Shown: piece by piece, positions 38,181-62,728 of the stretch
How the letters are laid out: each line of letters starts with the position of its first letter
Numbering within the stretch: the stretch's first letter is position 1
Assembly (NCBI GenBank): GCA_038104845.1
Contig: JAYOBJ010000003.1
Span: forward strand, 15,598 to 79,597
Length of the DNA: 64,000 nt
Direction: 5' to 3'
Source of the DNA: Methanobacteriota archaeon
GTDB lineage: Archaea > Thermoplasmatota > Poseidoniia > Poseidoniales > Poseidoniaceae
Notes under the pieces: generated by a model
Databases searched by the model: none
What the model was told of the DNA's origin: nothing
Seen by the model: only the letters and a program-made list of their open reading frames with translations
Program-made: the position numbers and the translations under genes

Positions 38181-38978
38181 CTAGGCGTCGGAGGACCATG
38201 GGTCGGATTCATCGCCCCATGAAGCAGGAGCTTCCTCGCCTTCGCCGACGGTGCCTTCGGTGTCCTCCGGTTCACCGTCCGGGGACGCATCGTCCGAGGG
38301 CGCTTCCTCAACGGAGGGTTCATCCTCGGCGGCAGCGTCATCCGAAGCCTCGGTCGTTGCCTCAACGGCTGGTTCTGAGGTCGCTGGCTCGGCGTCCTCA
38401 TCCTGAGCTTCTTGGGAGCGTGCTTCCACCATTTCCTCCAGGCGTTCAGCGAACACGCGCGTCATGTGCTGCGATTTTCGTTCGGCCTCAACGGCGCGCT
38501 CGATCATGTCGTAGCGTTCCTTGATGGCCTTGTTCAGGTCCTCGAAGATTTGCATGTGATCGACGTACCAATCGTCTCGTGCCTTCATCTCCGTGACGGC
38601 CATGCGAAGGTCGTTGTCCAGTTCCTCGGCAATGCCGAAGACCTTCCCCAAGCGGTCCTTTTCACGGGAGTACTTCTCCTCCATCTTGTCCAGTTCAGGT
38701 TCCAGGTGTTCAACGCGCTTGGAGGCTTTGGTGGCCCGCATCTCCAACTCTCGAGCGCGAACGTCCTTCTCTGCGATGATGGATTCCAAGGATTCCTTTT
38801 CGATTTCTCGATCGATGATCTCTTTCTCGAGCACCTCGATTTCAGCGCGAGCGTCCACCAGTTCTTTCTCCTGGGTTTCATAGGCAGCGAACAATTTCTG
38901 CAGGCGGTCGGTTTCGGTCGCCAACGCCTCTTCGAGTTGCTTGATGCGCACATCCGGCGTGAGGGTCCCTTCCGTCAT
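38181..38978 (-). CDS. coiled-coil protein with long acidic C-terminal tail
   Basis: Heptad-rich 'IKQLEEALATETDRLQKLFAAYETQEKELVDARAEIEVLEKEIIDREIEKESLE...'. The tail is D/E/A/P-rich and ends in 'WGDESDPWSSDA'. ATG 38978 is chosen; the ORF is open to 39068. Confidence 0.6.
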   Translation of the reverse strand: MTEGTLTPDVRIKQLEEALATETDRLQKLFAAYETQEKELVDARAEIEVLEKEIIDREIEKESLESIIAEKDVRARELEMRATKASKRVEHLEPELDKMEEKYSREKDRLGKVFGIAEELDNDLRMAVTEMKARDDWYVDHMQIFEDLNKAIKERYDMIERAVEAERKSQHMTRVFAERLEEMVEARSQEAQDEDAEPATSEPAVEATTEASDDAAAEDEPSVEEAPSDDASPDGEPEDTEGTVGEGEEAPASWGDESDPWSSDA

Positions 38979-39074
38979 TGAATCACCTGAGCCCAAGGCT
39001 CCGCTTCTCGCGAGTGGTTCCCTCCCTATCAAGCCGACGCTTGACTGGACCGGATGGGGGCTCAACACGGTGCT

Positions 39075-40037: not shown

Positions 40038-40113
40038 GAGCGGAGGCGTGCGCTGAGCCACCATGTGCCTTTCCCATCCACACGTTGATGGAGAACCTGC
40101 GCTTGGACCAACC

Positions 40114-40728
40114 ATGGCACAACGTGCAGCGACCGATTTGTTCAGCGATTGGGCGGCATCAGGCCGGGACGAGGGCATGGAAAAAGGCCACGCGGCCAGC
40201 GTCGAAGCGATGTTGGAAGCGGTGCTTCCCAAGCTTAACTCGGAATTCACGGCCATCGATGTTGGGTGCGGGAACGGTTGGGTCGTGCGGCGACTCAACG
40301 CCCTTGATGCATGCAAGCATGCCTCGGGGGTCGACGGGGCCGAGACGATGATCGACAAAGCCCACACGCTCGACCCCGAAGGCGATTATACACTGGCGAT
40401 GCTCCCCGAATGGCGCCCTGAAGCACCCGTTGACCTGGTGCACACGATGGAAGTCCTGTACTACCTTGAGGATCCCATGGGCTTCCTCGAAACGCTTCGC
40501 GAAGCGTGGCTGAACGACGGCGGTTGGGCGGTGATCGGTGTGGACCACTACGAAGAAAACGAAGCGTGTCACGATTGGTCAAGTTCGCTCAACGTTCACA
40601 TGGCCATGCACAGCATGGATGCCTGGGTCGAAGGCATGAACAAAGCGGGTTTCCGCCACGTCAAGGCGTTCCAAACCGGTGCAAAGGACGGTTGGGCAGG
40701 CACGCTCGTCCTCATGGGTCAGAAGTGA
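40114..40728 (+). CDS. class I SAM-dependent methyltransferase
   Basis: Motif I 'AIDVGCGNGWVV', and post-I/II elements 'VDLVHTMEVLYYLEDP'. Confidence 0.75.
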   Translation: MAQRAATDLFSDWAASGRDEGMEKGHAASVEAMLEAVLPKLNSEFTAIDVGCGNGWVVRRLNALDACKHASGVDGAETMIDKAHTLDPEGDYTLAMLPEWRPEAPVDLVHTMEVLYYLEDPMGFLETLREAWLNDGGWAVIGVDHYEENEACHDWSSSLNVHMAMHSMDAWVEGMNKAGFRHVKAFQTGAKDGWAGTLVLMGQK

Positions 40729-43700
40729 ACGGACCCACACCCAGCGGCTCGCCCTCCGGCCCGCAGCGACGGACATGCCCTCGATGGTAGGGGCACGATT
40801 CACACGCTCCGGCGGCCATGGGCAAGCGGCGCGGCGCTTCCGTGGCGGGGTTGAGGTGCACATGGGCGCGCCAAACCAAATGGGCATCGAGGTCGGCTTT
40901 GGCACGCTCAAACTGGGCGTCGTCAAGCGCCACCGTCCGGCCGTTGGCACCGACCAGCACCGCCGGTGGAAGGACGGTACGTCGCTGTGCCTCGGGCTTG
41001 TTTCGTTCCATGGCCTCCAACGCCAACGAGTAAAGCGATAGTTGCAAGCGGTGCTTCATCAGCAGGTCGGCTTCCGCCTGGTTCTGCGGGGACAGATCAA
41101 CGGTTTCTGGACCGCAGGCTTGCAACGGGTGACCGGCGGCGGGTGTTGAAGGGTTGAAGCCGCCCAAACAACCGGTTGTCTTCAGGTCGACCACGCGCAG
41201 GTAACCCGGCCCGGAACCGTCGGTCAATGCCAGCACCAGGTCGGCACGACCGCTGAAGTCCATCGTCACCGAGGTCACGTGCAGCGGGGAGGTGAACGCT
41301 GCTGTGTTGCGATGCTCAACCGGCAACCCGTGGCGATGGAAAAACGGCAATTCTGTGCGAACGGCTTCGACCCTGAGCCCGTCCATGGTTTCCCCGTTGA
41401 GCATGCGACCGAGTCGCCCGCGTTGGACCAAGGATGACAGGTGGGTCAGCCGGGCGCGCCATGTTGCTTCGTCGGACCCTTCTGCCTGTTTCGTTCCGAA
41501 GCCAAATTCGTGCATGACTTCCCCAAGCGCCTCATCGTCGGTCAGGCGGTCCTCGCCAGCGTGCAACCAGTCTCGGGACAAGGGCGAAGACGTGGCGTGG
41601 ATGGAACACGGGTTTCTCAAGCCGATTTCGAGCAAGCGGTGCATCATGAGACCAAACGTGGTCGCCTCGGGCCAGCCTCGCTGGTGGGCGGGGGGGCGGG
41701 GTCGTCCAGGCAACCACAGCGGTTCCGTTGGCCAACCTTTGACGTGTTCAAGCCAATAGCGACGTGGGCATGTTGACGTGGTGTCCAAGTGGTGAGCTGC
41801 ACCTTTCATCACCGCCACCGTTGGGGGGGGCGAACGTGGACCCGCTGGTTCGGACGGTGCAGTGGACGCAAGCCGGGCAGCGAGCTCGCGCAACTGGGCT
41901 TGGGGGGAGGAAGGGATGGGCTGGATGAAGCACGCTGGGTGGTGGTAAACACGGAGGCCTTGAACGCCGGTTGGACCAAGCGCAGCGGTGGAGAGCATGG
42001 AGGCAGGGTTGAACGCGACCGTCTCGCGCCTGGGCGAGAACGGCGGCAACTCATCCGCCTCCAATGCTTCTGTTTCAACGAGCAACGGATGAGCGGTGTT
42101 GGCCAGCCAGGCTGCGCGACGGAGCCCTTGCATCAACATGGAGCCCATCGTTCGAGGGTCCGGCTTGACGTTCACCGCCAGGCGCCCGTTGGTCTCGTCC
42201 CACTCACTGCGATCACCTGGCACCCCTGAAACCACAAGACGGTCCTTCACTCGTGTCAATGCGACGTAGAATTTCCGTCGCAACTCCGCTTTGTCTTGGG
42301 CTTTGTTCATCTCGCTGGCGAACGCCCAAAGCCCGTCTTGAGGCCGCTGGGCGCCCAACCACGGTTGGACTCGCCCGGCCACCGCCTGTGGGGTCACGAG
42401 CACGTTGTCCTGGATGGAGACCGTAGCATCGGCTTTGCCCGCCGTGAACAGCCCCGTCACCACCACCACGGGCGATTGAAGGCCTTTGGACCCGTGAATG
42501 GTCATGATTTGGATCGCTTCCGTTGCCGCCGGGCTGATGGCTTTCGGCCCCTGTTGACCCAATTGCCTCAATCCTGCCATGTTGGCTTGGACCGCACCCA
42601 CGTCGTGACCGTGTTGCGCACCGATGTCATGGAGCATGGCGTACCATGCTTCAGCGAACTGCCGATCGGCATCGCCGGGGTAAGCAGCCAGCAAATCCGA
42701 GTGGTCAAGCACGTCCTCAAACACCTCGTAGAGGGCACCGGCGTTGGCCCGCTGCCAGAGGTGGGTCATGAGGGCCTGCGTGCCGGGCGTGGGAGCGTGT
42801 GCGATCAGGTGCGACCAAGCATCTTCACCGTCACCCAACCCCGAAAGGCACGCATGGACTTCGTCCTCCGACATCCCCATCACCGGTGACCGAGCGAGTT
42901 GGAAGGCAGCGAGCCTGGACGTGGGGTGGGCCATCAACGTGAGCAGGGCTTGCAACGGTTGGACCACCGGTTGGGTCATCAACAAACCCAATCGGTCTGC
43001 CATGACGGGTAAACCGCGTTCACGCAATCGACGAACGAGATCGGGAAGATGGCGCCTGGAATTGACGAGGATCATCACGTCTGAGGGACGTACCTCGGAG
43101 CCAACTTCGGTCACGTGGGTCCACGAGACTCGGTCGGCGTCCCACACGCGTGTGGCACCACCGCCGATCAGGGATGCCAAGCGTTGGGCCACCAACTCAT
43201 GCTCCAAGTGCACCGCAGCGGCGTGAGGATCCGAAAACGTGTCAAGCGGTTCATCAAGGGATTCGGGGACGGTGTCCAATGTCCCCTGAACGGGGAGCAG
43301 CCATTCGAACACGCCACCTTCATCGGTCATTCGCGCTGGCCTCAAGCGTTGTGGCTCGGCGTGCCAATCCCCCGGTAAGTCGTGATGGTGGGGGTCGAAC
43401 ACCTCGTCAAACATGTCGTTCATGGTCTCCATCACATCGGCACGGGTTCGATGGTTGGAGGCCAGGTCGATGTGGCCTTCCCGTCGGCGTTGAAGGCGTT
43501 CACCGTCAAGGATGGCCCCTTCATCACCGTCCTCTTGGTTCAAGGGGACGAAACTGTGCGGAGCCGAGGCCCGTGTTTCATGTGCATTGCTGAAGGAACC
43601 GCCTTCACCGCCCGCACCCACCGGCCGAGGGTCCCGGCCGTGGCCCTCCTGTCGCAAATGGTCCAGCCTTGCATCATCGGCCTCGTCGATGTTGCAGCGC

Positions 43701-45643
43701 CGAATCATCGCCACTGCACGGCGCATGACCGAAACCTCGGCTTGGCGGAATCGGTAGATGCTCTGTTTCATGTCACCGACGATGCAGACCGTGGGGTCCC
43801 ACGCCCCGCGAGGACGCTGAGGGTCGTCGGCACGTTGATGGCGCCGCCCCCAAAGCCTGGCCAGCAGGCGAAAGTGTGCAGGGTTGGTGTCTTGGTATTC
43901 GTCGATGATGAACGCACGGAACTGCCGTCGGATGTCGCCCAGCACCGCCACGCGTTGGTGCAGGTCGGCCTGCAACTCGGGACGATCGTTGAGCAGTGTT
44001 AGGGCGCGCGTGATGTGATGATCGCTCCACGGTTCATCGCCCAAGCCGTCCAATGCATCGATGACCTCAGGAGGATAGCGATGACGGCACACATCGGGGC
44101 ACCGCGCGAGCAACACGTCCGCTGCAAACCGTTGCAAATCATCGAAATCGTGGAGCCCATCCAGTGATTTTCGTCGTGCGAGGATTTGGTGGGTCGCTCG
44201 ATGAACTTCAATCAAGTCGCTGAGGACCTGGGCCTGCAATTCACCGTCCACGAAGGTCCCCGCTGAGGGCGGTTCGTTGGGCAAGGGGTGGGTTAACGGC
44301 GCCAATCGCAACGGTGAATCGAGCGGCATCCCGTCAAATCCATCGCCCGGCTCGATGAGGAAGGCCGCCTTGGCCAAGAGGTTCACCAACGATCCAAACG
44401 GTGCGTGAAGACGCCGAACGAGGCGATCCTGAAGGACACCCGCTTGATCGTACAGTGCCGCACGCCCATCCTTGCCAATCCCGGCCGTGCTCGCCTTGGA
44501 TTTCGTCAGCAATCCAGCGGGCCAGCCATCCGACTGAGGCAGTGCGCTCCGTGGGAAGAACGTCGGAGGTTTGGCGGCCAAACCGGAGGTTGAAGCGAGG
44601 GCCATGTTGAGTTTCCAAGCCCACGAAAGGCCTGCACCGGTTGATTCGGGGAGGTCGCCGTGGGCCATCCGAACCAAGTGGTTGAACCGGGTCAAGTGCG
44701 TGTCACCCTCCGCTGGAGCCACGCAGCGCTCGTGATGCTGGAGAAACAGATCCACCCAGTCCCGCAGATCAGCGTGAAGTGCACTGAGGTGCCCTTGAAG
44801 GTCGTGGCGAACCGGTTCTGCGATGAGATCGAGCAACACCGCCACCGGAACCGGTCCGCGTCCGTTCCAATCAAGACCGAGGTCTTCGGACCGTTGAATC
44901 ATGGCACGGTGCGATTGCTCAACGAACAGCGACCGGTTCATCAATCCGTTCAGCACCACCTCGGCGGGCCCTTGACCGCCCATCATCGCAACAAGTCGAT
45001 CCCTGGCGCCGATGAAGGCCTCGTGGTGATGGAGCACACCCGCTTCGTGGGCGTCTTCAACCGAACGAATGCGCCACACTGTGTGAAGGGCATCGTTGAG
45101 CATCACGGGTGTTTGCGCTTCGGCTACGAACGTGTAGGATGGGTACAACGTGACCCGGTCGATGTGGGGTTGAATCAACCGGTTCAGGAAGGCATCGATG
45201 GTCGAGATCGGTGCCTCATCGAGCGAGGACAACAGCATCTCCACGTCGGCGTCCGAGCGAAGCCGTGGGTCAAACACACCTTCTGCATCGTCGGCAGCAA
45301 CGGCGGTGGCTCGCGATTGACCAAGACGCTGCCGAATGCGCGCCTTGAGTTCGGCTGCTGCCTTTTTGGTGAACGTGATGGCCACCACTTCGGAGGGAAG
45401 CAACCCGGGCCACGCCTCCAAGTCGGTTCGTTCACGTGCTGGAGCTCGCAACGCCCCGTGACCGGAAAGCGGTGTGCGAGGGCCTTGAGGCGTGACGTGC
45501 GTGGCGCGTTGGTCGTGCGCGATCAAGTGCTGAACGTAACGTTCGGCCATGACCGTGGTCTTGCCGGTGCCTGCACCGGCGTCGAGCGCAATGTGGCGAT
45601 CGAGGTCCAGCCCCAACCGTTGGCTGTTGTTGAAGTTGATCAT
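40712..45643 (-). CDS. addA: AddA-like UvrD-family helicase fused to a PD-(D/E)XK nuclease (1643 aa)
   Basis: Walker A 'DAGAGTGKTTV', motif II 'IIDEYQDTNPAHF', 'MTIHGSKGLQSPVV', 'FYVALTRVKDRLVVSG'. C-terminal nuclease 'GRADLVLAL...LRVVDLKT' and 'QLSLYSLAL'. Cys residues at 'STCPRRYW' and 'CESCPYHRGHVRRC'. The start overlaps the addB stop by 4 nt. Confidence 0.85.
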   Translation of the reverse strand: MINFNNSQRLGLDLDRHIALDAGAGTGKTTVMAERYVQHLIAHDQRATHVTPQGPRTPLSGHGALRAPARERTDLEAWPGLLPSEVVAITFTKKAAAELKARIRQRLGQSRATAVAADDAEGVFDPRLRSDADVEMLLSSLDEAPISTIDAFLNRLIQPHIDRVTLYPSYTFVAEAQTPVMLNDALHTVWRIRSVEDAHEAGVLHHHEAFIGARDRLVAMMGGQGPAEVVLNGLMNRSLFVEQSHRAMIQRSEDLGLDWNGRGPVPVAVLLDLIAEPVRHDLQGHLSALHADLRDWVDLFLQHHERCVAPAEGDTHLTRFNHLVRMAHGDLPESTGAGLSWAWKLNMALASTSGLAAKPPTFFPRSALPQSDGWPAGLLTKSKASTAGIGKDGRAALYDQAGVLQDRLVRRLHAPFGSLVNLLAKAAFLIEPGDGFDGMPLDSPLRLAPLTHPLPNEPPSAGTFVDGELQAQVLSDLIEVHRATHQILARRKSLDGLHDFDDLQRFAADVLLARCPDVCRHRYPPEVIDALDGLGDEPWSDHHITRALTLLNDRPELQADLHQRVAVLGDIRRQFRAFIIDEYQDTNPAHFRLLARLWGRRHQRADDPQRPRGAWDPTVCIVGDMKQSIYRFRQAEVSVMRRAVAMIRRCNIDEADDARLDHLRQEGHGRDPRPVGAGGEGGSFSNAHETRASAPHSFVPLNQEDGDEGAILDGERLQRRREGHIDLASNHRTRADVMETMNDMFDEVFDPHHHDLPGDWHAEPQRLRPARMTDEGGVFEWLLPVQGTLDTVPESLDEPLDTFSDPHAAAVHLEHELVAQRLASLIGGGATRVWDADRVSWTHVTEVGSEVRPSDVMILVNSRRHLPDLVRRLRERGLPVMADRLGLLMTQPVVQPLQALLTLMAHPTSRLAAFQLARSPVMGMSEDEVHACLSGLGDGEDAWSHLIAHAPTPGTQALMTHLWQRANAGALYEVFEDVLDHSDLLAAYPGDADRQFAEAWYAMLHDIGAQHGHDVGAVQANMAGLRQLGQQGPKAISPAATEAIQIMTIHGSKGLQSPVVVVTGLFTAGKADATVSIQDNVLVTPQAVAGRVQPWLGAQRPQDGLWAFASEMNKAQDKAELRRKFYVALTRVKDRLVVSGVPGDRSEWDETNGRLAVNVKPDPRTMGSMLMQGLRRAAWLANTAHPLLVETEALEADELPPFSPRRETVAFNPASMLSTAALGPTGVQGLRVYHHPACFIQPIPSSPQAQLRELAARLASTAPSEPAGPRSPPPTVAVMKGAAHHLDTTSTCPRRYWLEHVKGWPTEPLWLPGRPRPPAHQRGWPEATTFGLMMHRLLEIGLRNPCSIHATSSPLSRDWLHAGEDRLTDDEALGEVMHEFGFGTKQAEGSDEATWRARLTHLSSLVQRGRLGRMLNGETMDGLRVEAVRTELPFFHRHGLPVEHRNTAAFTSPLHVTSVTMDFSGRADLVLALTDGSGPGYLRVVDLKTTGCLGGFNPSTPAAGHPLQACGPETVDLSPQNQAEADLLMKHRLQLSLYSLALEAMERNKPEAQRRTVLPPAVLVGANGRTVALDDAQFERAKADLDAHLVWRAHVHLNPATEAPRRLPMAAGACESCPYHRGHVRRCGPEGEPLGVGPFTSDP

Positions 45644-48600
45644 CCTTCATCACCTCCAAGGGACGCAACATCGCATCCGTCCCGCACCGCACAGTACGTG
45701 CAATGACGGCCCGGTGTGGGGTTGATGTGACCGGCACCGAAAGCATCGATGGCCCGTTGCGCCACGCGTAACCGCTCCTCCATCCAGCGACGAAAGGCGG
45801 TCTGGCCGGAATCAGCAGGGTTGGTCCTCGGGAAGTGATGGCGAAGATGTTGCGTGATGTTGCCAACCATGAGCCCGTCGGCGACGGGGTCCATGGCTTC
45901 ATCGAGTTCAACGTAGTGCACCGTGCGTTCACCGATTTCGGACGCACCAACGCCAACCACACGGTCGTTGGGATGCGATTGCTCCCAAGCACGGGCGTAG
46001 AGCGCCAGCTGCACGTCCTCAAACATGCAACGAGCGTGACGCAATCCCAAGCGGTCTGCTTTCGGACCGTTGACGGTTTTCAGGTCACGTACAACGACCA
46101 ACCGTTGAACGGGACGCTGCGACCCGTTGAGTGGGTAGGGCGCCGCATGTGAAGCGTCGCCCAACACACCCGCTTCGATCAGAACGGCGCGTTGCGCTTC
46201 GGTGAGGTGCACCTCATCGATTCGGTCGGCGAACCCTGACATGTGGAACCCCCGTTCCGTATCATCGCTTGACGGTGCGTCGATGAAAACCGGTGAACCA
46301 TCGAGGTTCGATGCGGGCCATTCGGCCACCAACGGGGCAGCGTGACGCAGCGCCCATGTGGCTTCGAGCATGGAGCCCACTTGACCCCCCATGGGTAGGG
46401 GGGCAGCGCCTTCGACGTGAGCGGCCCATGCGTCCGGTGAAGCGTTGAGCAAGGCACGCGTGCGGTGCACGGAGACAGCGTTGGAGCGCCCCAGCCAAGT
46501 GGCATGTTCTGCGAGATACGTCAACACCGCACCCCAAGCGTCCGTGACGGTTCCAAGCACACCGAGATGCAACGGCAAGGCCGGCGCTTCACCGACTTTG
46601 CTGACCCTCAAACCATGCGCCTCAAGCAGGGCCACCGACACGTCGTGCATAAGTTGGCCCCGCGTGCGGTTGTCGATGTCTTCAGAGGGGGCTTCACCGT
46701 CGCTCCGAACGCCCAGCCAACCCTCCGACCACGCCCGACGTGGGCAGCGCAGAACGGCTTCGATCCGGCTTGGCGACCAACGCGTTCGATGGAGGGATGT
46801 GGAGAGGTGCCCGAACCGATCGTTGAGATGATCGGGGCCGGAACCGTAGGGTGGAAGGGGGCGCGGGTCAGCAGCGATGCTGTGGGAGCGCCCCGGCCGA
46901 TGCCCCAAATGGGGCCACAGCGGGGCATCTGCACTCGGTGTCTTGAGGTGATTGAGTTCACCGACACCAAAGCGAAGCGCATCCACAGAGAGGAGATGTG
47001 TGCGCGCATCCCAAGGCAAGCATTCACCTTCCTCCAGCCGTTTCGCCATCGGTTGACGGCGGTAGCGGTCTTCCTGTACAGCGGCGACGTGCGTGCGAAC
47101 CACACCCATGGGATGGAGCAGAGTATGGTCGCCTTCATCCCTCATGGCAAGCGCCCGTTGGCCCGCACGCTGACGTCCCGACCTGGGAAGCAAGCCATCC
47201 TCGGATCCAGTGCCTTCGTGAGCAACGGTGGAAACTGGGCCCAATTGGGGCGTCATCCAGGCCCCATGGCCCCGCTCTCGAACCGACCACGCCCAACGAC
47301 GTTCGGCCCCTTCACCTTGATGACGGGAGGGGGGGATGAACGGGGGTGGCTGGCGCATGGCATCCCATGTGCGGGATCGACGAACGTCGGTGAGCCATTC
47401 GGCCAGAGGGGCGCTGGGACCGTTGTCCTCCACAGATGAGGTGTCCATCACCGCCACATACCGGCCGGCGTTGAGCAAGTGACGGAGGTGATGGCGCCCC
47501 TGGCGAACCAAGACGTCGTTGTGGAACATGCCCAACTCCAACTGAGCGGTGGCGTCCAGCCACGGAAGCGTCGGTCGTTTCATGGGCCACGATTGAACAT
47601 CAAGGCCTGCCAGAACGACCAAATCAGCGTTGCATCCGTGGGCCTCTTCGGGCGTCAGCACCGTGACATGAGGCGATTGCGGTTCAGTTGACGGGATACG
47701 GAGGGCCTCACCGACCATGTGAAGCACGTCGATCATCCCTTGGCCTTGGAGCAGTTCGGTGCCTTCCTGCTTCACCACGCGATCCAACGCCTCGAGCACA
47801 TCCTGCAGGTCGCCCCAGCCTCGGTTGTGACGTCCGACGGTCCGAGCCATGCGTTCCATGTCAAGTCGGCCGACGGATTCACTCAGCCATTCAAGACCGT
47901 CGGCCGGTGCCTTTGGCGTTGGCAACACCTGTCCAGAGCTGCACCCAATCCGTTCGCGCCCAACATGGTGACGGTCCTCCGGCATCAACAACGGTGCCCA
48001 CGTCGCCACAACGCATGCCAGCCACCACTGCGTTTCCTCCAAACGTTGCTTGCGCTCGTCAGGACGGCGCTCAAGCAACGAGGGGCGTGCTTGACTCAAT
48101 GCTCCCATCCAACGAGCGATGGCGCCGGGCCCACCCAAGACGTGGAAATGCTGACCAATGTCGGCCAAAACCTCCAGATGCGGCCTGGGCCGCCAGCTGG
48201 GTTGGCTGGGATGCTCGAGCGCAGGGAACATGTCGGTCGACCAGGGCAGGGCGCTTGAGGTGACCAGGGTGCGCAATCCTTCGAGCGACCAAGCGTTCAT
48301 GCCCTGTCCGATGGAAGCAGCGTGAACGACGGCGGCGAAAACGGGTTGTTCACGCATCGACCGGGTCTGCGAGGGCGCAACGACCCCCCATTGTTTCAAC
48401 CATTGATGCCATGCCGCACGGCGTTGGTGGGCTTGACCGTCCACCACCAAAACACAACCGCCCTCGTGCGTCAAGAAATCACCGACGAGGTGGGCCGTTG
48501 CGGGGAGGGCGTCGTCACCGTGGTCCAAGGCGATGCGCGTCAACACCCTCCCGCGGTCCTCGCCTGCAGGCGTGGACCAAGCGGTTCCGTCGGAGGCCCA

Positions 48601-49434
48601 CACGGGGTGAGGCGGAAGCCAGGCCGGCAGCGTTTCCTCCGTGCACGGTGGCTCGTCGAGCACGTACGCGCCGTGATGACCCAATCGGAACGAACCGGGG
48701 TGAACCAGTTGGTGAACGGGGCAATGGACGGACAGGTGCGTGAGCAGATCCTGCTCGATCTCGTTGAAATCGGGCGCCGTGTCCAGCAACACGATGCCGT
48801 TGAGCCCAGCGAAGTGGAAGGGGGGGTGCTCAGCACGCTTCAGGGCGTTGAGCACATGGTGTTGCAACAACATCGGCAGCGTTCCACCTGCTTCCCGCTC
48901 ATGGGCCAGCATCAAATCGTGCAGCATGTCCACCCCGGGATTGGACGACCAAGCGAACGGTGAACGCAAACCGCTGACCTCGGCATAGAGGCTCAAGAGG
49001 CGTTTGGTTTTCTGAACCGTCCACGAACCCGCCCCCGGCGTGTGAAGCAAGGGAAAGCCATGCGCTTCGGCGGCCGTCGCACACCGACGATGGAGCGCCA
49101 TGAACGAGGTGACGTCGTCATTGAGCATGACAGGAAGGCGGAAATCAACGTGGAGCAAACGCCACAGCTGATTGAGGGTGGTGTGGGCCTGCGGGGCATG
49201 GGTGTAGCCTTGTTCGTGGAGATTGACCAGCGTTTGTTGACGGTGGTGCTCGTTGGGGTGCACCACGAGCAGGCCAGGGTCTTCATCCCTGAACGCTTCG
49301 AACAACCACGGCGGCAGGCCCTGACCGGCAGGGACATGTTCCGACGTGATCTGAGGCTGGACCATGACGTTCATTCCTGAGATGACCGGCGAGCGTTCTT
49401 GAAGATGCGCGAAGCAAACGGTGGAACATTTCAT
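45640..49434 (-). CDS. addB: AddB-like nuclease subunit (inactive-helicase scaffold plus Cas4/AddB-type PD-(D/E)XK nuclease, 1264 aa)
   Basis: I found no Walker A. C-terminal 'WSPSRIEAVLRCPRRAW', 'GFADRIDEV', 'VVVRDLKT', 'VQLALYARAW', 'HCTYCAVRDGC'. The start is ambiguous (49434 or ATG 49374, MNVMVQ). Confidence 0.75.
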   Translation of the reverse strand: MKCSTVCFAHLQERSPVISGMNVMVQPQITSEHVPAGQGLPPWLFEAFRDEDPGLLVVHPNEHHRQQTLVNLHEQGYTHAPQAHTTLNQLWRLLHVDFRLPVMLNDDVTSFMALHRRCATAAEAHGFPLLHTPGAGSWTVQKTKRLLSLYAEVSGLRSPFAWSSNPGVDMLHDLMLAHEREAGGTLPMLLQHHVLNALKRAEHPPFHFAGLNGIVLLDTAPDFNEIEQDLLTHLSVHCPVHQLVHPGSFRLGHHGAYVLDEPPCTEETLPAWLPPHPVWASDGTAWSTPAGEDRGRVLTRIALDHGDDALPATAHLVGDFLTHEGGCVLVVDGQAHQRRAAWHQWLKQWGVVAPSQTRSMREQPVFAAVVHAASIGQGMNAWSLEGLRTLVTSSALPWSTDMFPALEHPSQPSWRPRPHLEVLADIGQHFHVLGGPGAIARWMGALSQARPSLLERRPDERKQRLEETQWWLACVVATWAPLLMPEDRHHVGRERIGCSSGQVLPTPKAPADGLEWLSESVGRLDMERMARTVGRHNRGWGDLQDVLEALDRVVKQEGTELLQGQGMIDVLHMVGEALRIPSTEPQSPHVTVLTPEEAHGCNADLVVLAGLDVQSWPMKRPTLPWLDATAQLELGMFHNDVLVRQGRHHLRHLLNAGRYVAVMDTSSVEDNGPSAPLAEWLTDVRRSRTWDAMRQPPPFIPPSRHQGEGAERRWAWSVRERGHGAWMTPQLGPVSTVAHEGTGSEDGLLPRSGRQRAGQRALAMRDEGDHTLLHPMGVVRTHVAAVQEDRYRRQPMAKRLEEGECLPWDARTHLLSVDALRFGVGELNHLKTPSADAPLWPHLGHRPGRSHSIAADPRPLPPYGSGPDHLNDRFGHLSTSLHRTRWSPSRIEAVLRCPRRAWSEGWLGVRSDGEAPSEDIDNRTRGQLMHDVSVALLEAHGLRVSKVGEAPALPLHLGVLGTVTDAWGAVLTYLAEHATWLGRSNAVSVHRTRALLNASPDAWAAHVEGAAPLPMGGQVGSMLEATWALRHAAPLVAEWPASNLDGSPVFIDAPSSDDTERGFHMSGFADRIDEVHLTEAQRAVLIEAGVLGDASHAAPYPLNGSQRPVQRLVVVRDLKTVNGPKADRLGLRHARCMFEDVQLALYARAWEQSHPNDRVVGVGASEIGERTVHYVELDEAMDPVADGLMVGNITQHLRHHFPRTNPADSGQTAFRRWMEERLRVAQRAIDAFGAGHINPTPGRHCTYCAVRDGCDVASLGGDEG

Positions 49435-49449
49435 GTAGTTGTTTCATGT
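49429..49449. repeat. direct repeat TTTCATGT-N5-TTTCATGT
   Basis: Read directly: 49429-49436 and 49442-49449 are identical octamers. The first overlaps the longest-ORF start codon of addB. Confidence 0.9.
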
Positions 49450-49587
49450 TGGTTGGTTGCTTGAGGTGCGGTGTGTCGGTGACCGGAAATGGCGGACCTG
49501 TTTTTTCGCCAAATGGGGCAGCGTCGGGTTGGGATTCAGGAATTTGTGGGGGCTTCTCCGTAAGTTTCAAATAGTGTATGCTCATAA

Positions 49588-49602
49588 CATGAAGTGTTCA
49601 TG
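49588..49602. repeat. perfect inverted repeat CATGAA-gtg-TTCATG
   Basis: Read directly in the AT-richer addB/tfb intergenic region. It shares the TTCATG core with the direct repeats at 49429-49449. Confidence 0.9.
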
Positions 49603-49687
49603 TTTGAGTGTGCGCACAACCTGCAAGCGGCCAACAACCGCACGGTGAGCAAGGAGGTTCAGTCCGCCCAAGGCGGATTTGAATCCC

Positions 49688-49694
49688 TTAAAAA
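49688..49694 (+). promoter_or_regulatory. TATA-like box (TTAAAAA), with Shine-Dalgarno GAGGTG at 49715-49720, upstream of tfb
   Basis: TTAAAAA is centred about 37 nt before ATG 49728. GAGGTG lies 7 nt before the ATG. Confidence 0.35.
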
Positions 49695-49727
49695 CACTCA
49701 AGGAACAACCAACAGAGGTGAACGACG

Positions 49728-50969
49728 ATGAAGCGATTTTGTGAAGAATGTGGTGTGGAACAGCAGTGGGAATTGGACAGCGTGCGTGGCGAGATGTGCT
49801 GCGAAGGATGCGGGCTGACGCTCGATTACATCCCGAACGATGCGGATACGAACAGCTCCATTTCCGCCGGTGATGAACGCCAGAATGAACGGGTGAACGC
49901 CCTTGAGGGACGTGGCCCTGGAACCGTGATGAACGCCATGGGCGACCGGTTTGATGCCCAAGGAAACCGACTTTCGGCCGATGCGTTTCGCTTGTACCGA
50001 CGGTTGGGTCGCGTGAACCGCTCCACCCACCGTGAGAAAGACCCGATGTACCGTCAACTCGTTGCAACGTTGCGCGAACTCTTCGGCGAAAACCTCGCCC
50101 TCACGGTGGAGTTCCTGACGCGCGCCACCGCCCAGAAACTCACCCCCATGCAGGAGGCGATCCGCCGCACCCTGTCGCCCAGCGAACAGAAACTGCTGGC
50201 CTGCCCCAAAACCAGCATCACGCGCAAGCCCTCGGGCGTTAAGGGCGAGTCGGACCGTCAAAACCTCGTTTTGATGGCCATTGCCATCGCCGAGTTGGCC
50301 CACGAATGGTTCGGCGCCCTCCACATTGACCGAGCGGCCTTGCTCGCTGAACACGGCCTGACGCAGACCCAATTCAAGAACGCCAAGCGAACCATTTCGC
50401 AGCATTACAAAGCCCGCTGCCGTCAGAAATTCGCACCCATCCCACGACCCGACATGGATGCCGAGATGAAGGCGTACATCAAAAACGGCATCCGTCACGA
50501 CAAGGTGGACGTTCACACCGACCGGTTGTTCAACGAACTGGACAGCCGCCTGACCGATGCACAACACAATGCATTGAACAAGGTGTACGACGGCATGCTG
50601 ACCGCCATTGGCGAGCCCTCCACCGACGCATACACCGCCAACATGGATGAATCCATGCTCTGCTCGGTGGTGATGTTGGCAGCGTTGACGGCCCTGGATC
50701 TCGAGCATCAAAACCTGGCGGCCTTGGGCCGCGCGGTCGGCGACCGCTCCGGTGCCGGCATCAAGAGCCGCTTGGCGCAGCTCCGCTATGAGGTGGAGCG
50801 CGGCATCTTCCCACAGGGTGCTGCCTTGTTCGAGAAGCACCGTTCGCCGCACGGGCGGGAAGGCCAAGCCGACGAGACCCAGACGGATGCTTCAGACGAG
50901 GCCGAACGGACGGACCGTTCCAGCGACCGAAACGGTTCCTCGGACGAGACGAGCGGCTCGGGGCAGTGA
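49728..50969 (+). CDS. tfb: divergent transcription initiation factor TFB/TFIIB paralog (413 aa)
   Basis: N-terminal zinc ribbon 'CEECGVEQQWELDSVRGEMCCEGCGLTL'. Helical cyclin-like region ('NLVLMAIAIAELAHEWFGALHIDRAALLAEHGLTQTQFKNAKRTI'). Unusually long, with an acidic/Ser-rich tail. Confidence 0.7.
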   Translation: MKRFCEECGVEQQWELDSVRGEMCCEGCGLTLDYIPNDADTNSSISAGDERQNERVNALEGRGPGTVMNAMGDRFDAQGNRLSADAFRLYRRLGRVNRSTHREKDPMYRQLVATLRELFGENLALTVEFLTRATAQKLTPMQEAIRRTLSPSEQKLLACPKTSITRKPSGVKGESDRQNLVLMAIAIAELAHEWFGALHIDRAALLAEHGLTQTQFKNAKRTISQHYKARCRQKFAPIPRPDMDAEMKAYIKNGIRHDKVDVHTDRLFNELDSRLTDAQHNALNKVYDGMLTAIGEPSTDAYTANMDESMLCSVVMLAALTALDLEHQNLAALGRAVGDRSGAGIKSRLAQLRYEVERGIFPQGAALFEKHRSPHGREGQADETQTDASDEAERTDRSSDRNGSSDETSGSGQ

Positions 50970-55412: not shown

Positions 55413-55829
55413 TCAAAGAAGTTTGAGTTCGCCCGTCAGGCGGTCAAGGGTTTCGCTCTCAAAAGGACCGAGGGCCAACACGGTCTTCGAACCGGCCGGA
55501 ATCTGGGTGTGACCGGCATCTCGTACCAAATGAAAGGGGACGTTGAGCGTTTTGGCTTCGGTCATCAAACGGTCGAATGCTGCCTCATCGGGCACCTTCA
55601 CACAGATTTTCTTCTGACCGGTGGCCAACCATGCCTCCACATGACCGGCGTGGGTGGGTCCTGCACCGAGGAACGCACCCACGGATGCATGGCCCACCTG
55701 CGCTGCCATCTTTCCCTTGCCCATTTTGAGCGACTGGTTAACCACGCACACCAGCTTCACCGGTCCACGAATGCGGTCCACACCACCGCTTGGGGCCGTG
55801 ATTCGGTGCAACCATGAACGAAGACCCAT
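55413..55829 (-). CDS. pth2: peptidyl-tRNA hydrolase, archaeal type (Pth2), copy B
   Basis: 'KMGKGKMAAQVGHASVGAF', 'GQKKICVKV', 'LVRDAGHTQIPAGSKTVLALGP'. The ORF is open to 55955, but ATG 55829 lies 4 nt after the stop of copy A. Confidence 0.85.
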   Translation of the reverse strand: MGLRSWLHRITAPSGGVDRIRGPVKLVCVVNQSLKMGKGKMAAQVGHASVGAFLGAGPTHAGHVEAWLATGQKKICVKVPDEAAFDRLMTEAKTLNVPFHLVRDAGHTQIPAGSKTVLALGPFESETLDRLTGELKLL

Positions 55830-55833
55830 GCCA

Positions 55834-56217
55834 TCACCACGATGCGAGCGAACCCGTGATGGCGTCCAACGCACGCCGTGGCGCGGGGCCCAACCCGAGG
55901 ACCGTGACCGTACCCGGAGGCAGTTCGGTGCGTCCGGCGTCCTTAATGAGCGCATGCACCACTTGATGCGCTTCTGCCATGGCCAGCAATTCGTTCAGGT
56001 GCGCTTCGTCTTCGGCCGCCAGGCAGACCTTGCGGGCACCGCTTTCCAACCATCGGTCGTACAGGCGGCCATGTTGGCGGGCGCGGCGGGTGCAGGTCAC
56101 CGCTGCATGCGCGCACTGCACAGCCATTTTGCCTGCGGACATCACCACATCTCGGCGAACGATCAGCGCCATGCTGGGCGCATCATCCATCGATGGCATG
56201 GCGTTCAACGACCTCAA
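55834..56217 (-). CDS. pth2: peptidyl-tRNA hydrolase, archaeal type (Pth2), copy A
   Basis: 'MSAGKMAVQCAHAAV', 'GARKVCLAA', 'LIKDAGRTELPPGTVTVLGLGP'. The start may be the Met at 56172 (MALIVRR), which removes the overlap with the upstream gene. Confidence 0.85.
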   Translation of the reverse strand: MRSLNAMPSMDDAPSMALIVRRDVVMSAGKMAVQCAHAAVTCTRRARQHGRLYDRWLESGARKVCLAAEDEAHLNELLAMAEAHQVVHALIKDAGRTELPPGTVTVLGLGPAPRRALDAITGSLASW

Positions 56218-58533: not shown

Positions 58534-60552
58534 TCACTCCATCACGGCTTGGATGGCAGCTCGCAGCAGCGCACTCACCGCTTTGCCGTCGGCGCCTTGG
58601 GCTGCTTGCATCACGACGCCCATCAACGGGCCCATGGCACCCATCCCACGTTCGCGAACAAAGTCGATGCGTTCCGTGACGATTCCGTTGACGATGGCCG
58701 ACAAATCACCCACATCCACCGGGCCGAGGCCGTTCGCCTCGACGTAGGTTTGCAACGCCTCGAAGGTCGGGGATTGCCCTCGGAAGGCTTCCACCAGGGT
58801 GTCCACGTGGTCGCGGGCAACAACCTCCTCGTTGCGCAACATCAACACGTTGACCAAAAGAAGCGGGTCTTCGTCGTCGTGGGTCAACAGGAGGGAAGCC
58901 CACGCTTTGTGAGGCACGGCGTCGACGTGTTCCATGTACACGTCGTCCAGTTCGCGAGCCAGCAACTGCTGGGCTTGATCGCTGGAAGCATCGGTGGTGG
59001 ACAAACGGTCGGCACGGGCTTGGTCGTCCATCGGTAAGCGAGCAAGCACATCGGCCCATTGCTCGGCCGTGACGGCATGGGGCGGGACATCTGTTTCAGG
59101 GTACATCCGTGACCCACCCGGCAAAGGTCGCATGGGGGCCGTGGTCCCGTCTTCGGGAGCGCCTTTCTTCACCACAACGTTGCGAACTTCCTTCTGCACG
59201 CGGTGGAACGCTTGGCGGGCTCGGTTCAGCACCGCTTCCAACGCCAGCGAGGCCTGCCACTTCGGAGCGCAACACAGCACGAACGCATCGTCGGGGGCGA
59301 GGTCAAGCTGCTCACGAACGGTGTTGACCTCGTTGGACGTCAGGCCGTACGCTGGCAATTCATCGCTGTGGAAGATGCCTTTTACGCCGGCCAATTTAGC
59401 GGCTCCAGCGAGTTCTCGACCCAAGCGTGGAAGCTGGGCGCCTTGCTCGTCGAGCGTTTTGGTGCCCAGCAAACCGTGCATGCCGGGCAACGCCAACGCC
59501 AACATCACGGCGCCGTTCGCCAGCGCTTGCTCGACCATCCCAGAGGACGTGGCGTTGAAGTGTGGCGTTACATCGTGAAGGTTCAGAACGTACCGACCGG
59601 TCACCGCTGCCGCCACCTCGACTTCCACGGTGTCATCGTCTTGTCGACGGTCCTCAGGAAGGGGTGGGAGGTCCAACGCCGTTCGGAGTTGATTGGCCAA
59701 CCGGTAGAAGTGAAGTTGTCGAACCATTTCAAGACGAACGATGGTGGGGATCCAGCCCAAGTCCTGACATCCCTTGATTTCGACACGGTCACCGCAGGCG
59801 ATGGAGACGTTGAGATCCTGACGAATGCTGCCGAGACCGCGACGAACACGGCGGGTCTGACGCAACACGCGGCCCAAAGCAATGGCGGTGGTCTTGGCGT
59901 GTTCCGGTGATTGAACGTCCGGGGCAGTGGCAATTTCGATGAGCGGCAAGCCGAGCCGGTCGAGGTTGTAGACGACGGTCTGGCCCGTGGCGTGGTCGAC
60001 CGTGTCAAGTTTCCGTGCGCTGTCCTCCTCCAAACACAACACATCCACCCCCACCGGGCCGCCGTCCGTCTGGAGCGTGCCTGCCGTGGCCATCAACGAC
60101 GTGCGTTGGAAGCCGCTCGTGTTGGATCCGTCCACGACGGTTTTTCGCATGGTTTGGACCAACGGCACCGGCCGAGCGTCGAGCAAAGCGGCAACGGTGA
60201 GCGCGATGTCTACGGCATTGGCGTCCATCGCCACTGGTGGTTGTTCATCCAGCTCCACGAGGCCCGCATTGGGTGTTTGAACGTACACAAACGAGCGGTT
60301 TCGTTTGGCTTCAAATCGAGCAGCCACATCGACGGCACCGCCCTCACCGCGCGCCGCTCGTAATTTCCGGGCAAAGCGAGGCCACGCCTCGGGCACCGTA
60401 TCGATGGTCACATCGTAAAGGATCCCGGGTTGCCTTGAGTGCAATTTCCCTGTGGCCAGTTGCTGGTGCACCTCCAGCCCGCACATGAAGCCGAGGGTCT
60501 CTGGATTGAGTGCATCCGGCCGAGTGAGGTCCGCCGTCATCGCATCGTCCAT
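58534..60552 (-). CDS. gatE: Glu-tRNA(Gln) amidotransferase subunit E
   Basis: 'GFMCGLEVHQQL', 'DEQPP', 'VVDGSNTSGFQRT', 'LPLIEIATAPD', 'IRQDLNVSI', and a C-terminal GatB/YqeY-like tail. Confidence 0.95.
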   Translation of the reverse strand: MDDAMTADLTRPDALNPETLGFMCGLEVHQQLATGKLHSRQPGILYDVTIDTVPEAWPRFARKLRAARGEGGAVDVAARFEAKRNRSFVYVQTPNAGLVELDEQPPVAMDANAVDIALTVAALLDARPVPLVQTMRKTVVDGSNTSGFQRTSLMATAGTLQTDGGPVGVDVLCLEEDSARKLDTVDHATGQTVVYNLDRLGLPLIEIATAPDVQSPEHAKTTAIALGRVLRQTRRVRRGLGSIRQDLNVSIACGDRVEIKGCQDLGWIPTIVRLEMVRQLHFYRLANQLRTALDLPPLPEDRRQDDDTVEVEVAAAVTGRYVLNLHDVTPHFNATSSGMVEQALANGAVMLALALPGMHGLLGTKTLDEQGAQLPRLGRELAGAAKLAGVKGIFHSDELPAYGLTSNEVNTVREQLDLAPDDAFVLCCAPKWQASLALEAVLNRARQAFHRVQKEVRNVVVKKGAPEDGTTAPMRPLPGGSRMYPETDVPPHAVTAEQWADVLARLPMDDQARADRLSTTDASSDQAQQLLARELDDVYMEHVDAVPHKAWASLLLTHDDEDPLLLVNVLMLRNEEVVARDHVDTLVEAFRGQSPTFEALQTYVEANGLGPVDVGDLSAIVNGIVTERIDFVRERGMGAMGPLMGVVMQAAQGADGKAVSALLRAAIQAVME

Positions 60553-60598: not shown

Positions 60599-62728
60599 TT
60601 AGATCATCTGCAGTGTGTCGTAGCCTTTCGGTCGCATCAAACGACCGCCGCGAACCAACTTCTCAAGAATGTCTTCGGCCTTGCTCCGAGGGATGTCGTC
60701 CCGCTCGGCTTCGTTGAGCACGTCAAGCAACGTTGCGTGCGTGCCGGATTGGTTCTGAAGCATGGACACGATGTCGAGCATCTGCCGTTCTTGGTTGCGA
60801 ACCGCCGTTTTCTTTCCGGAATGCACCGAGGTTTCGTCAAAGTTCTCCCCCATCAATTCAAAGCGCCATGTTTTGGTCAGCCGAATCGCTCGCTCCGCAT
60901 CCGTCAACGTTGCTTCATCCGACAAACGAATGCGGGCGCTGGCCTCGGTCAAACGGGACAAGGCCTCAAGAGCACGAGCCGTGATGGCGACGCTGTCGTT
61001 GGCCTCTCCACCTGCCTTTCGGGTTTTGACGTAAAAGTCCACGATCGCCTGCTGGGCTTGGTCGTTCAATTTGGGACGAACGGTTCGCTTGGCGTACGCC
61101 ACGTACTTGCGAAGCAAGTCTTTGGGCAGTTGGGTGTACATCCCGTCGGTGCGGGTCCCTGCTGTTTTGGCCTGCTGATTTTTCGTTGGGTCAGGCATGC
61201 TCCCTTCGTTGACGAGCAACTCGCTCGAACCCTTGAGGCGGGTTTGAACGATGTGAGAGGCAATCTTTGCATCGTGTTCTTCGTCGGCGTCGTCGGTCAT
61301 CAGCCAAATGACGTCAAATCTTGAGAGCAGCGGCGGTGCGAGGTTGATTTGTGAGGTGAACGGCACGTCACTGACCGGTTGAAAGCGTCCCTCCTTGGGG
61401 TTGGCGGCCGCCAAGATAGCGCACCGCGTTCGGAGGCTGGCGTTGATGCCGGCTTTCGAGATGGAGATGCGCTGCTGCTCCATGGCCTCGTGCATGCTCG
61501 AACGGTCAGCGGCGTTCATTTTGTCGAATTCGTCAATGGCTGCCAGCCCGAGGTCGGCCAGCACGAGAGCCCCGGCTTCCAACGTCCAACGGCCGTCGGC
61601 CGTGGCGTCTTGGACGGCTGCAGCCGTCAGGCCGGCTGCTGAAGCCGATTGACCGGAAGTGAAACGGCCCCTCGGCGAAATGGTGGACATGTAGTTGAGC
61701 ATCTGCGATTTGGCCACACCCGGATCGCCCATCAACAGAATGTGAATGTCGCCGCGGCTGCGGGTTCCGTCGGGGTTGAGTTGGGCTTCCCCGCCAAACA
61801 ATTGGAGCATGAGCGATTCCTTGATGCGTGGCCATCCGAAGATGGACGGTGCGATGCTCGTTGTCAGCACATCGTATACGTTGGTCTGGCGAGCGATGGA
61901 TTTGATTTCGTTCTCTTCCTCCTCGGTGATGATGATTTCCTCGAGTGGGACGTTTTGCCGCTCCAGGGAATGGATGCGAAGGAAAATGTCGAACACGGGC
62001 GTGTCCTTCCCGCTCTTTCGCTGCGAACGGATGAACAGCACCCCGTTGGCTTTGACCCGGTCACCGGGGTTGAGTTGTCCGGCGAGATCCTGCTCGCCGA
62101 TGCAGACGATGCGCTCGGGTTGAATGCCACCCTTCACCTGTTCGGGAAGTTCCTGCAACTCGACGAATTGAGAGTTGATCAGTTGGGATAGATGCTGCTG
62201 CAATTGGAAACGCGTCTGACGTTTCGGACGCCCGCAACCGCCATCGATTTGTGAACATTCAAGGGGCTCGATGAGTTCCTGTTCGTTGGGTTGAGCGATT
62301 TCCATGGTGTGGCCGCACGCCACGCACTCAAACACGGCGAGATACAACCGGGGCCGCACACCTGAGATTTTGGTGGTCACGGCGTCGATGGCGATCATCA
62401 TCCCGATGTCGTCCGCCCGAAGCTGCGACACCGTACGAACCTGGTCGCTGGGCAGGTGTTCAATGCGCAAAAACGGCACTTTGTTGCCCTCACCTGCATC
62501 CAACAGGAACTGTTGAAGGGCCTGGTTGGCCGCTCGAAAGTGGTGCTCGGGATGCGCAAGGATGTCTTGTGCGAACTCAGGGTCGTACCCTTCGATCACG
62601 CGGTAGGACACCTTGAGCGATTGCTCTTCAGGCCACATCCGAGCAATGTTATGGATGGCCTCGGAGAAGGTGTCCTGAAGCAAGGAGGTCCAGCGGGCAG
62701 GCAGGTCGAACTCTTGTATCGCAGCCAT
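60599..62728 (-). CDS. mcm: MCM replicative helicase
   Basis: Zn motif 'CVACGH...C...CG', Walker A 'ILLMGDPGVAKSQ', Walker B 'AAIDEFDKM', arginine finger 'SRFD', C-terminal winged helix. Confidence 0.95.
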   Translation of the reverse strand: MAAIQEFDLPARWTSLLQDTFSEAIHNIARMWPEEQSLKVSYRVIEGYDPEFAQDILAHPEHHFRAANQALQQFLLDAGEGNKVPFLRIEHLPSDQVRTVSQLRADDIGMMIAIDAVTTKISGVRPRLYLAVFECVACGHTMEIAQPNEQELIEPLECSQIDGGCGRPKRQTRFQLQQHLSQLINSQFVELQELPEQVKGGIQPERIVCIGEQDLAGQLNPGDRVKANGVLFIRSQRKSGKDTPVFDIFLRIHSLERQNVPLEEIIITEEEENEIKSIARQTNVYDVLTTSIAPSIFGWPRIKESLMLQLFGGEAQLNPDGTRSRGDIHILLMGDPGVAKSQMLNYMSTISPRGRFTSGQSASAAGLTAAAVQDATADGRWTLEAGALVLADLGLAAIDEFDKMNAADRSSMHEAMEQQRISISKAGINASLRTRCAILAAANPKEGRFQPVSDVPFTSQINLAPPLLSRFDVIWLMTDDADEEHDAKIASHIVQTRLKGSSELLVNEGSMPDPTKNQQAKTAGTRTDGMYTQLPKDLLRKYVAYAKRTVRPKLNDQAQQAIVDFYVKTRKAGGEANDSVAITARALEALSRLTEASARIRLSDEATLTDAERAIRLTKTWRFELMGENFDETSVHSGKKTAVRNQERQMLDIVSMLQNQSGTHATLLDVLNEAERDDIPRSKAEDILEKLVRGGRLMRPKGYDTLQMI

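Follow-up and report, generated by a model that had tools for sequence, protein, structure and literature searches.

The window analysed here, a 64-kb stretch of contig JAYOBJ010000003.1 from a Marine Group II (Poseidoniales) archaeon, carries on its minus strand two very large adjoining genes, addB-like and addA-like, whose products (the B-like and A-like proteins) are in our estimation the subunits of an AddAB-type helicase-nuclease, with a probability of about 0.82. The B-like gene lies upstream and the A-like gene directly downstream (Table 1). An earlier sequence-only reading of the same DNA had described two very large open reading frames (ORFs) of 1264 and 1643 amino acids (aa) overlapping by 4 nt, and both were found exactly as described. 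The overlap reads ATGA, and a Shine-Dalgarno-like GGAGGTGA is present at 45650-45657, 6 nt 5' of the A-like ATG; together these suggest translational coupling of the two genes. The identical 4-nt overlap was found in two divergent loci described below, L036 and L037. The start of the B-like gene is ambiguous within the first 24 codons (alternatives at 49374 or 49365), and the true start is uncertain because a 98%-identical homologue has been called at 1241 aa. GC content was flat across the window, at 0.59-0.63 (~0.61).

Table 1. Coordinates in the window of the addB-like and addA-like genes and of the features assigned to them. Residue numbers are those of the encoded proteins.
Feature	Position	Strand	Basis
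addB-like gene (B-like; maximal ORF, 1264 aa)	45640..49434	-	ORF list; ATG start
addA-like gene (A-like, 1643 aa)	40712..45643	-	ORF list; ATG start
Junction; B-like stop and A-like start overlap by 4 nt (ATGA, 45640-45643)	45640..45657	-	Sequence reading
Intergenic stretch shared with the divergent TFIIB-Zn-ribbon gene; presumed operon promoter region	49435..49727	.	Position only
A-like SF1A (superfamily 1A) UvrD-type helicase motor, residues 1-1144, all motifs	42212..45643	-	Pfam, conservation, hhalign
A-like family-specific insertion, residues ~640-725, between helicase motifs III and IV	43469..43726	-	Invariant columns
A-like C-terminal RecB-family nuclease with four-cysteine (4-Cys) pattern	40715..41794	-	PDDEXK_1, conservation, fold
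B-like inactivated UvrD-like (SF1) helicase scaffold, residues ~21-720	47275..49374	-	AlphaFold2, Foldseek
B-like degenerate Walker-A position, residues 59-65 (H-P-N-E-H-H-R), without GK[T/S]	49240..49260	-	Column counts, 119 members
B-like residues 297-634, collinear with bacterial AddB outside the nuclease	47533..48546	-	hhalign, NCBIfam
B-like C-terminal RecB-family (PD-(D/E)XK) nuclease with 4-Cys 'iron-staple' pattern	45643..46785	-	PDDEXK_1, conservation

The A-like protein contains the Pfam domains UvrD-helicase, UvrD_C and PDDEXK_1. Helicase motifs I, II, III, IV, V and VI were invariant in 118-119 of the 119 homologues compared, the Walker A being G23-T29 (45557-45577), and in the C-terminal nuclease the residues D1468, D1486, K1488, Q1534 and Y1538 were 100% conserved in the same set. 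The 4-Cys pattern, C1292 and C1614-x2-C1617-x9-C1627 (the last three at 40763-40804), was 91-99% conserved. A profile search against PDB sequences placed AddA first (3u44_A, E 1.2e-32), followed by AdnB (1e-16), UvrD1 (4e-15) and RecB (5e-13). Among the curated families of NCBIfam, addA_Gpos was the best for 19 of 19 A-like members (best E 5.9e-59), followed by addA_alphas and recB, and comparison with the AddA of an Anaerolineae bacterium in hhalign gave a probability of 99.95% (E 1.3e-37) over 797 aligned columns. The model of the C-terminal domain (pLDDT 85.6) matched the PDB folds of AddA (2.7e-6) and RecB (9.6e-6) and then those of the Cas4 family (E 3e-4). By every measure used (profile, curated families, nuclease fold), the A-like protein is closest to AddA.

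The sequence-only reading had also pointed to the size of this protein, and the A-like product is indeed ~400 aa longer than Bacillus subtilis AddA (1232 aa) and the nearest bacterial AddA-type proteins (1016-1324 aa). The idea that one inserted domain accounts for the difference did not survive, because the PDB profile alignment distributes the excess over four regions or more. The linker and nuclease together contribute ~155 aa and the 1B region ~130 aa; a further ~70 aa separate motifs III and IV, and ~35 aa separate Walker A from motif Ia. The insertion at residues ~640-725 contains the invariant motif G669-R-D-P-R-P-x-G-x-G678, and no bacterial AddA counterpart of it was found in the hhalign or PDB alignments.

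The B-like protein is annotated "hypothetical". Its sole Pfam domain is the C-terminal PDDEXK_1 (E 9.9e-15), with no helicase match in Pfam, and pairwise methods reach just the nuclease domain; in pairwise and profile searches against the PDB only Cas4 (E 0.035) and AdnA (E 0.9) were returned. The AlphaFold2 model of residues 21-880 was confident over the first ~700 residues (pLDDT 82.6, pTM 0.72). When this scaffold was searched against the PDB with Foldseek, B. subtilis AddB (chain B) took all of the first five places, at E 1.3e-14 to 1e-12 and with TMq ~0.5, and UvrD, AdnB, RecC and AdnA ranked behind. Profile comparison in hhalign aligned columns 281-621 with columns 288-636 of Anaerolineae AddB at a probability of 96.2% (E 2.3e-9); a further bacterial B subunit, that of L041, was aligned over 736 columns (E 7e-7). 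In NCBIfam, 18 of 32 B-like members matched addB_alphas (best E 3.5e-12) or TIGR03623 (best E 6.7e-13), the addB_alphas match of the window's protein lying at residues 544-636. The B-like scaffold is thus AddB-like on three independent lines: fold, profile comparison and curated families. By analogy with AddB, it is a candidate for the channel in which the 3' strand would be scanned for a Chi-like sequence.

Across the 119 B-like sequences the Walker-A position reads [H/Y]-P-[N/T/S]-E-x-x-R, and in the B-like proteins of L036 and L037 regular-expression scans over residues 1-120 found no Walker A. Since the position is degenerate throughout the family, the B-like protein is predicted to lack ATPase activity. 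In its nuclease, D1070, K1119, Q1142 and Y1146 were 100% conserved and D1117 97% conserved (119 sequences), as were, at 90-100%, the cysteines C897 and C1245-x2-C1248-x5-C1254 (the last three at 45673-45702). In AddB the iron staple is built from one Cys on the N-terminal side of the nuclease domain and three on its C-terminal side (PMC3378879). The arrangement of the B-like cysteines agrees with this layout, and a 4Fe-4S site is predicted from the sequence.

These results bear on most of what had been read from the letters alone. The full UvrD/Rep helicase motifs and RecB-type nuclease claimed for the second protein agree with Pfam and with the conservation in 119 sequences. For the first protein, the lack of a Walker A extends over all 119 family sequences, and the AddB-type nuclease end is borne out by PDDEXK_1, the conserved active site and the 4-Cys pattern. 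The addB-addA reading itself holds for both subunits on profile, fold, hhalign, active sites and 4-Cys.

Several results weigh against an AddAB assignment. The window's A-like protein scored 144 bits against an NCBIfam cut-off of 707.65 for addA_Gpos and 134 against 860.75 for addA_alphas, and the B-like protein scored 25 bits against the equivalog cut-off of 486.5 for addB_alphas. No match to Pfam ADDB_N was found in the B-like protein, and phmmer gave zero matches between it and three genuine bacterial AddB proteins. The TM-scores of its scaffold are moderate (~0.5), and UvrD, AdnAB and RecC are also significant fold matches. The protein is furthermore without the Walker A of B. subtilis AddB; this motif is likewise absent in two of the three bacterial B subunits examined, so its absence does not bar the B-like protein from being an AddB.

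A locus scan with one genome per species recovered 35 loci, all of them (35/35) in Poseidoniales genomes, on contigs of up to 440 kb. One of these genomes (L022, isolate AH-287-P07) is apparently a single-cell genome, judging by the isolate name. The B-like gene was directly upstream of the A-like gene in every one of these loci whose sequence reaches that far, as well as in L036 and L037. Full-length A-like homologues (1480-1690 aa) numbered in the hundreds, with identities from 98% down to ~26% and with named sources given as Candidatus Poseidoniales, Poseidoniaceae or 'Euryarchaeota archaeon'. For the B-like protein, 118 full-length archaeal homologues (1180-1300 aa) were found, and their family labels include Thalassarchaeaceae (Marine Group IIb, MGIIb) and Poseidoniaceae (MGIIa). 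The ~25-kb neighbourhood of the pair is made up of housekeeping genes and is collinear across the 35 loci, in the shared order beta-eliminating lyase, two unknown genes, Zn-ribbon gene, B-like, A-like and convergent methyltransferase, followed by an alpha/beta hydrolase, a coiled-coil protein, phosphatidylserine decarboxylase (PSD) and further genes. Within MGIIa, B-like identity was 47-50% as compared to 60-62% for A-like, the B-like protein diverging faster than the A-like protein or most neighbours.

Both L036 and L037 have an overlapping B/A pair near GatE, PTH2 and other neighbours common with the window. L036 (ENA ERZ26167216 ctg495766, 1-23495) is part of a 3.0-Mb contig of 71% GC, and its pair also lies near MCM and PSD; its B and A proteins are 29-33% identical to those of the window, and its GatE is 51% identical. 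Probably this is a Poseidoniales relative, deep-branching or non-marine, whose large genome lies on one contig. L037, on a 736-kb contig that also carries archaeal ribosomal P1 and L10 genes, is a deep branch. Because the same pair and neighbourhood are found in the 35 genomes and on the long contigs of L036 and L037, a chimera, contamination and a mobile island are excluded; nor does the pair belong to a defence island or result from a recent transfer.

Given the overwhelmingly bacterial occurrence of AddAB, and given that the closest relatives outside the family are bacterial AddA proteins, one might have suspected contaminating bacterial DNA, a chimeric join or a horizontal transfer from bacteria in the recent past, but this explanation is effectively refuted. 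Both flanking junctions recur in 35 independently assembled Poseidoniales genomes and on long contigs (440 kb, 736 kb and 3.0 Mb), GC is flat at ~0.61, and the pair has diverged in step with its neighbours. The phmmer scores of the A-like protein also fall off a cliff: even the most divergent archaeal members reach 518 bits or more, and no bacterial AddA recovered exceeds 94 bits. The sequence-only reading had held that the pair was not a binning artefact unless the assembly was chimeric, and had named a chimeric join as what would undo its view; the same join was instead found in 35 Poseidoniales genomes and on contigs of 0.7-3.0 Mb. It had likewise named a defence-system family, and such a module, in which a UvrD-Cas4-type helicase-nuclease with an accessory nuclease would degrade phage or plasmid DNA and not serve chromosome repair, is very unlikely here. 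UvrD-Cas4-like fusions do occur in 'many bacteria and mesophilic archaea', often in defence contexts (Hudaiberdiev et al. 2017, PMC5704561), the A-like nuclease has a Cas4-like 4-Cys and matches Cas4-family folds at E 3e-4, and the generic GajB (UvrD) models of PADLOC match the A-like protein at up to 60 bits. PADLOC, however, gave no match for the B-like protein, and the locus is fixed in its housekeeping neighbourhood in 35 genomes and two deep lineages, with no Mod/Res, Dcm/Vsr, GajA or other defence gene nearby; the neighbours are hydrolases, PSD and a small-molecule or tRNA-type methyltransferase. For the A-like protein, AddA outscores all other helicase families, and its partner has the AddB fold. 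Since the breakdown of foreign linear DNA is also a side-function of bacterial AddAB and RecBCD, the defence explanation overlaps in part with the AddAB one.

Likewise very unlikely is a RecBC-like or AdnAB-like enzyme, in which the B-like protein would be either a second motor of AdnA type or a RecC-type subunit whose nuclease is dead. The fold of the B-like scaffold matches RecC (1w36_F) at E 4.5e-11 and AdnA/AdnB at ~1e-11, and the recB model of NCBIfam, at 121 bits, nearly equals the addA models (134-144 bits) for the window's A-like protein. Yet the B-like protein retains all nuclease catalytic residues and the 4-Cys, which argues against RecC, described as 'not an active nuclease', and its missing ATPase site argues against AdnA, which keeps Walker A and B (PMC3321194). 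No recD-like gene adjoins the pair in the conserved neighbourhood, and AddB comes first by fold for the B-like protein, as AddA does by profile for the A-like protein.

Within the archaeal family, B-like phmmer scores were 278-399 bits. When 1.84 billion representative proteins were searched exhaustively by profile, ~35 full-length B-like clusters (50% identity) were among the matches listed; the best 150 matches were all family members or fragments of them, which bounds the family. The nearest relatives of the A-like protein outside the family are bacterial AddA proteins of Pyrinomonadaceae, Anaerolineae and Bacillota. When a bacterial donor was sought with the most divergent archaeal A subunit as seed, several phyla gave similarly low scores, and for this reason no donor lineage can be named. 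The AddB of Pyrinomonadaceae does share the missing Walker A and the 4-Cys, yet it aligns with the archaeal B-like profile at the first-Cys motif only. Most likely, a bacterial addBA operon was acquired once, in ancient times, by the common ancestor of the Poseidoniales or still earlier, and then descended vertically while diverging strongly.

The 4-Cys pattern of the A-like nuclease is also present in 12 of the 28 nearest bacterial AddA-type proteins, and is thus a feature of a subtype and not an archaeal invention. Such a nuclease in ~40% of the nearest bacterial AddA proteins departs from the textbook AddA. The bacterial AddB proteins of L038, L040 and L041 were also seen to mix and match features: the Anaerolineae AddB (L038) has a Walker A and no terminal CxxC, the Pyrinomonadaceae AddB (L040) has no Walker A and a CxxCx5C, and the L041 B subunit has neither Walker A nor terminal CxxC and no Pfam ADDB_N match.

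Of the archaeal markers that the sequence-only reading had placed on the same DNA, MCM (60599-62728, minus strand), GatE (58534-60552, minus strand) and Pth2 were confirmed, and TFB was not. The candidate for the latter (49728-50969, plus strand, 413 aa) has a TFIIB zinc-ribbon match that is sub-threshold only (20.5 bits against a cut-off of 29), with no cyclin-fold repeats and no NCBIfam match; it is divergent from the addB-like gene and syntenic in MGIIa loci. PTH2 is present as two tandem full-length genes (55422-55766 and 55840-56175, both minus strand; each PF01981 at E ~1e-36), and is single-copy at the equivalent place in L036 and L037. At its 3' end the addA-like gene overlaps by 17 nt (40712-40728) with a convergent class-I S-adenosylmethionine methyltransferase gene (40063-40728, plus strand) of small-molecule or tRNA type, and this convergent arrangement is kept in MGIIa loci. 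A gene of 295 aa with weak SMC-like coiled-coil similarity (38181-39068, minus strand) was 88-92% identical in most MGIIa loci, as compared to 60-80% for its neighbours, which is unusually strong conservation for a gene of unknown function. Two giant ORFs, 19699-27960 (plus strand, 2753 aa) and 2645-6289 (minus strand, 1214 aa), had no Pfam match at E <= 0.01, and the 1214-aa ORF had no NCBIfam match either; they may be large surface or secreted proteins. Scans of the 64-kb window for tRNA genes and Rfam families found nothing, and none of Mre11, Rad50, HerA and NurA was found among its genes.

The best reading of the pair is a one-motor, two-nuclease AddAB-type end-resection enzyme, anciently acquired and then vertically inherited. 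Its mechanism can be sketched from that of B. subtilis AddAB (PMC3321194, PMC3378879). By this analogy, a heterodimer of the A-like and B-like proteins would bind a double-stranded DNA end, and the single SF1A motor of the A-like protein would translocate 3'-to-5' on the 3'-ended strand, unwinding the duplex. The A-like nuclease would cut the 3' strand and the B-like nuclease the 5' strand, while the ATPase-dead B-like scaffold would thread the 3' strand and may recognise a Chi-like hotspot sequence. Such recognition would halt cutting of the 3' strand and leave a 3' single-stranded tail, which would pass to the recombinase, in this archaeon RadA by our own extension of the scheme. We accordingly infer, and do not observe, complex formation, end resection, Fe-S cluster binding, Chi-like control and the RadA hand-off.

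According to a 2026 preprint, RecBCD and AddAB 'are not present in archaea', and a phylogenomics study of Marine Group II is silent on RecB, on AddA, on helicases and on DNA repair. Among the papers open to our search, none links Marine Group II to RecBCD and none links Poseidoniales to Rad50. The abstract of a 2009 paper by Cromie reportedly announced the unexpected identification of archaeal addAB genes. In PMC2887965, transfer of addAB 'even into the archaea' is attributed to Cromie 2009, and the concept is therefore not new; the view of AddAB as a bacterial machine, taken in the sequence-only reading, needs qualifying to the extent of this citation, according to which archaeal addAB is not wholly unprecedented. 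What appears to be undescribed is the AddAB of the Poseidoniales as seen here: present throughout the order, passed on vertically, enlarged, strongly divergent, and with a B subunit annotated as hypothetical.

Poseidoniales outnumber all other planktonic archaea in the surface ocean, a sunlit and UV-exposed habitat. Throughout this order, whose ecological importance is global, the AddAB-type pair is a core feature, conserved and vertically inherited, and so divergent that its B subunit carries a "hypothetical" annotation. It is possible, though rather doubtful, that the enzyme is the main machine for double-strand break resection in Poseidoniales, feeding RadA under an archaeal Chi-like control, and that it may replace HerA-NurA and/or Mre11-Rad50. 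If true, this would give the Archaea their first recombination pathway regulated by Chi and their first hand-off from AddAB to RadA. The pair raises the questions of whether an AddAB-type resection enzyme works with RadA in place of RecA, whether there are Chi-like sequences in an archaeal genome, and whether the canonical archaeal resection machinery has been kept or lost in Poseidoniales. It also offers a deeply divergent AddAB for structure-function comparison, with 4-Cys sites in both subunits, a B subunit predicted to be ATPase-dead, and conserved insertions.

Among known systems, the AddAB of B. subtilis (PDB 3U44, 3U4Q, 4CEH, 4CEI, 4CEJ) is the best structural match of the B-like scaffold and of the A-like nuclease, and the best PDB sequence match of the A-like protein. 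Like the archaeal pair, it consists of two subunits encoded by addB followed by addA, with two RecB-family nucleases and a single active SF1A motor, which sits in the A subunit, and its AddB has an inactivated UvrD-like scaffold and a nuclease with a 4-Cys iron staple, which in the B-like protein is a pattern recognised in the residues. The archaeal pair differs from it in its host, in the ~400 aa greater length of the A-like protein, and in the absence from the B-like protein of the Walker A that B. subtilis AddB keeps (PMC3321194). The A-like protein moreover carries its own 4-Cys, whereas reviews describe an Fe-S cluster in AddB only (PMC3321194, PMC3378879). Identity to B. subtilis AddAB in the fold alignments was ~10-17%. 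Outside the nuclease, the only curated families that the B-like protein matches are TIGR02786 addB_alphas (proteobacterial-type AddB) and TIGR03623 ('probable DNA repair protein'), and the score of the window's protein with the former is ~20-fold under the equivalog cut-off.

The bacterial loci L038, L040 and L041 share the addB-addA order, and L041 also has a 4-nt overlap. The AddA proteins of L040 (Pyrinomonadaceae) and L041 (metagenomic) have four Cys, as the A-like protein does, in their case in a C-P-R-x-Y...CxxCx5C pattern; L040 AddB resembles the B-like protein in having CxxCx5C and no Walker A, and the L041 B subunit does so in having no Pfam ADDB_N match. The similarity of these bacterial proteins is nevertheless only remote, with A-like phmmer scores of at most 94 bits and lengths 150-650 aa shorter; in alignments to the B-like profile, the L041 B subunit reaches E 7e-7 and L040 AddB is matched over the first-Cys motif only.

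Escherichia coli RecBCD and mycobacterial AdnAB also combine an SF1 helicase-nuclease with a helicase-like partner, as the archaeal pair does, and are significant fold matches. In RecBCD, however, the RecC nuclease is dead and RecD is required, whereas the nuclease motifs of the B-like protein are intact (predicted live) and there is no third gene; in AdnAB, AdnA keeps its ATPase motifs (PMC3321194), whereas the B-like protein is without an ATPase site. The UvrD-Cas4-like fusions (PMC5704561) resemble the A-like protein in joining a UvrD-type helicase to a PD-(D/E)XK (pfam12705) Cas4-like nuclease and in occurring in mesophilic archaea. They stand alone or adjoin Type III restriction-modification or Dcm/Vsr genes (PMC5704561), unlike the A-like protein, which is always paired with a partner of AddB fold and in a housekeeping context.

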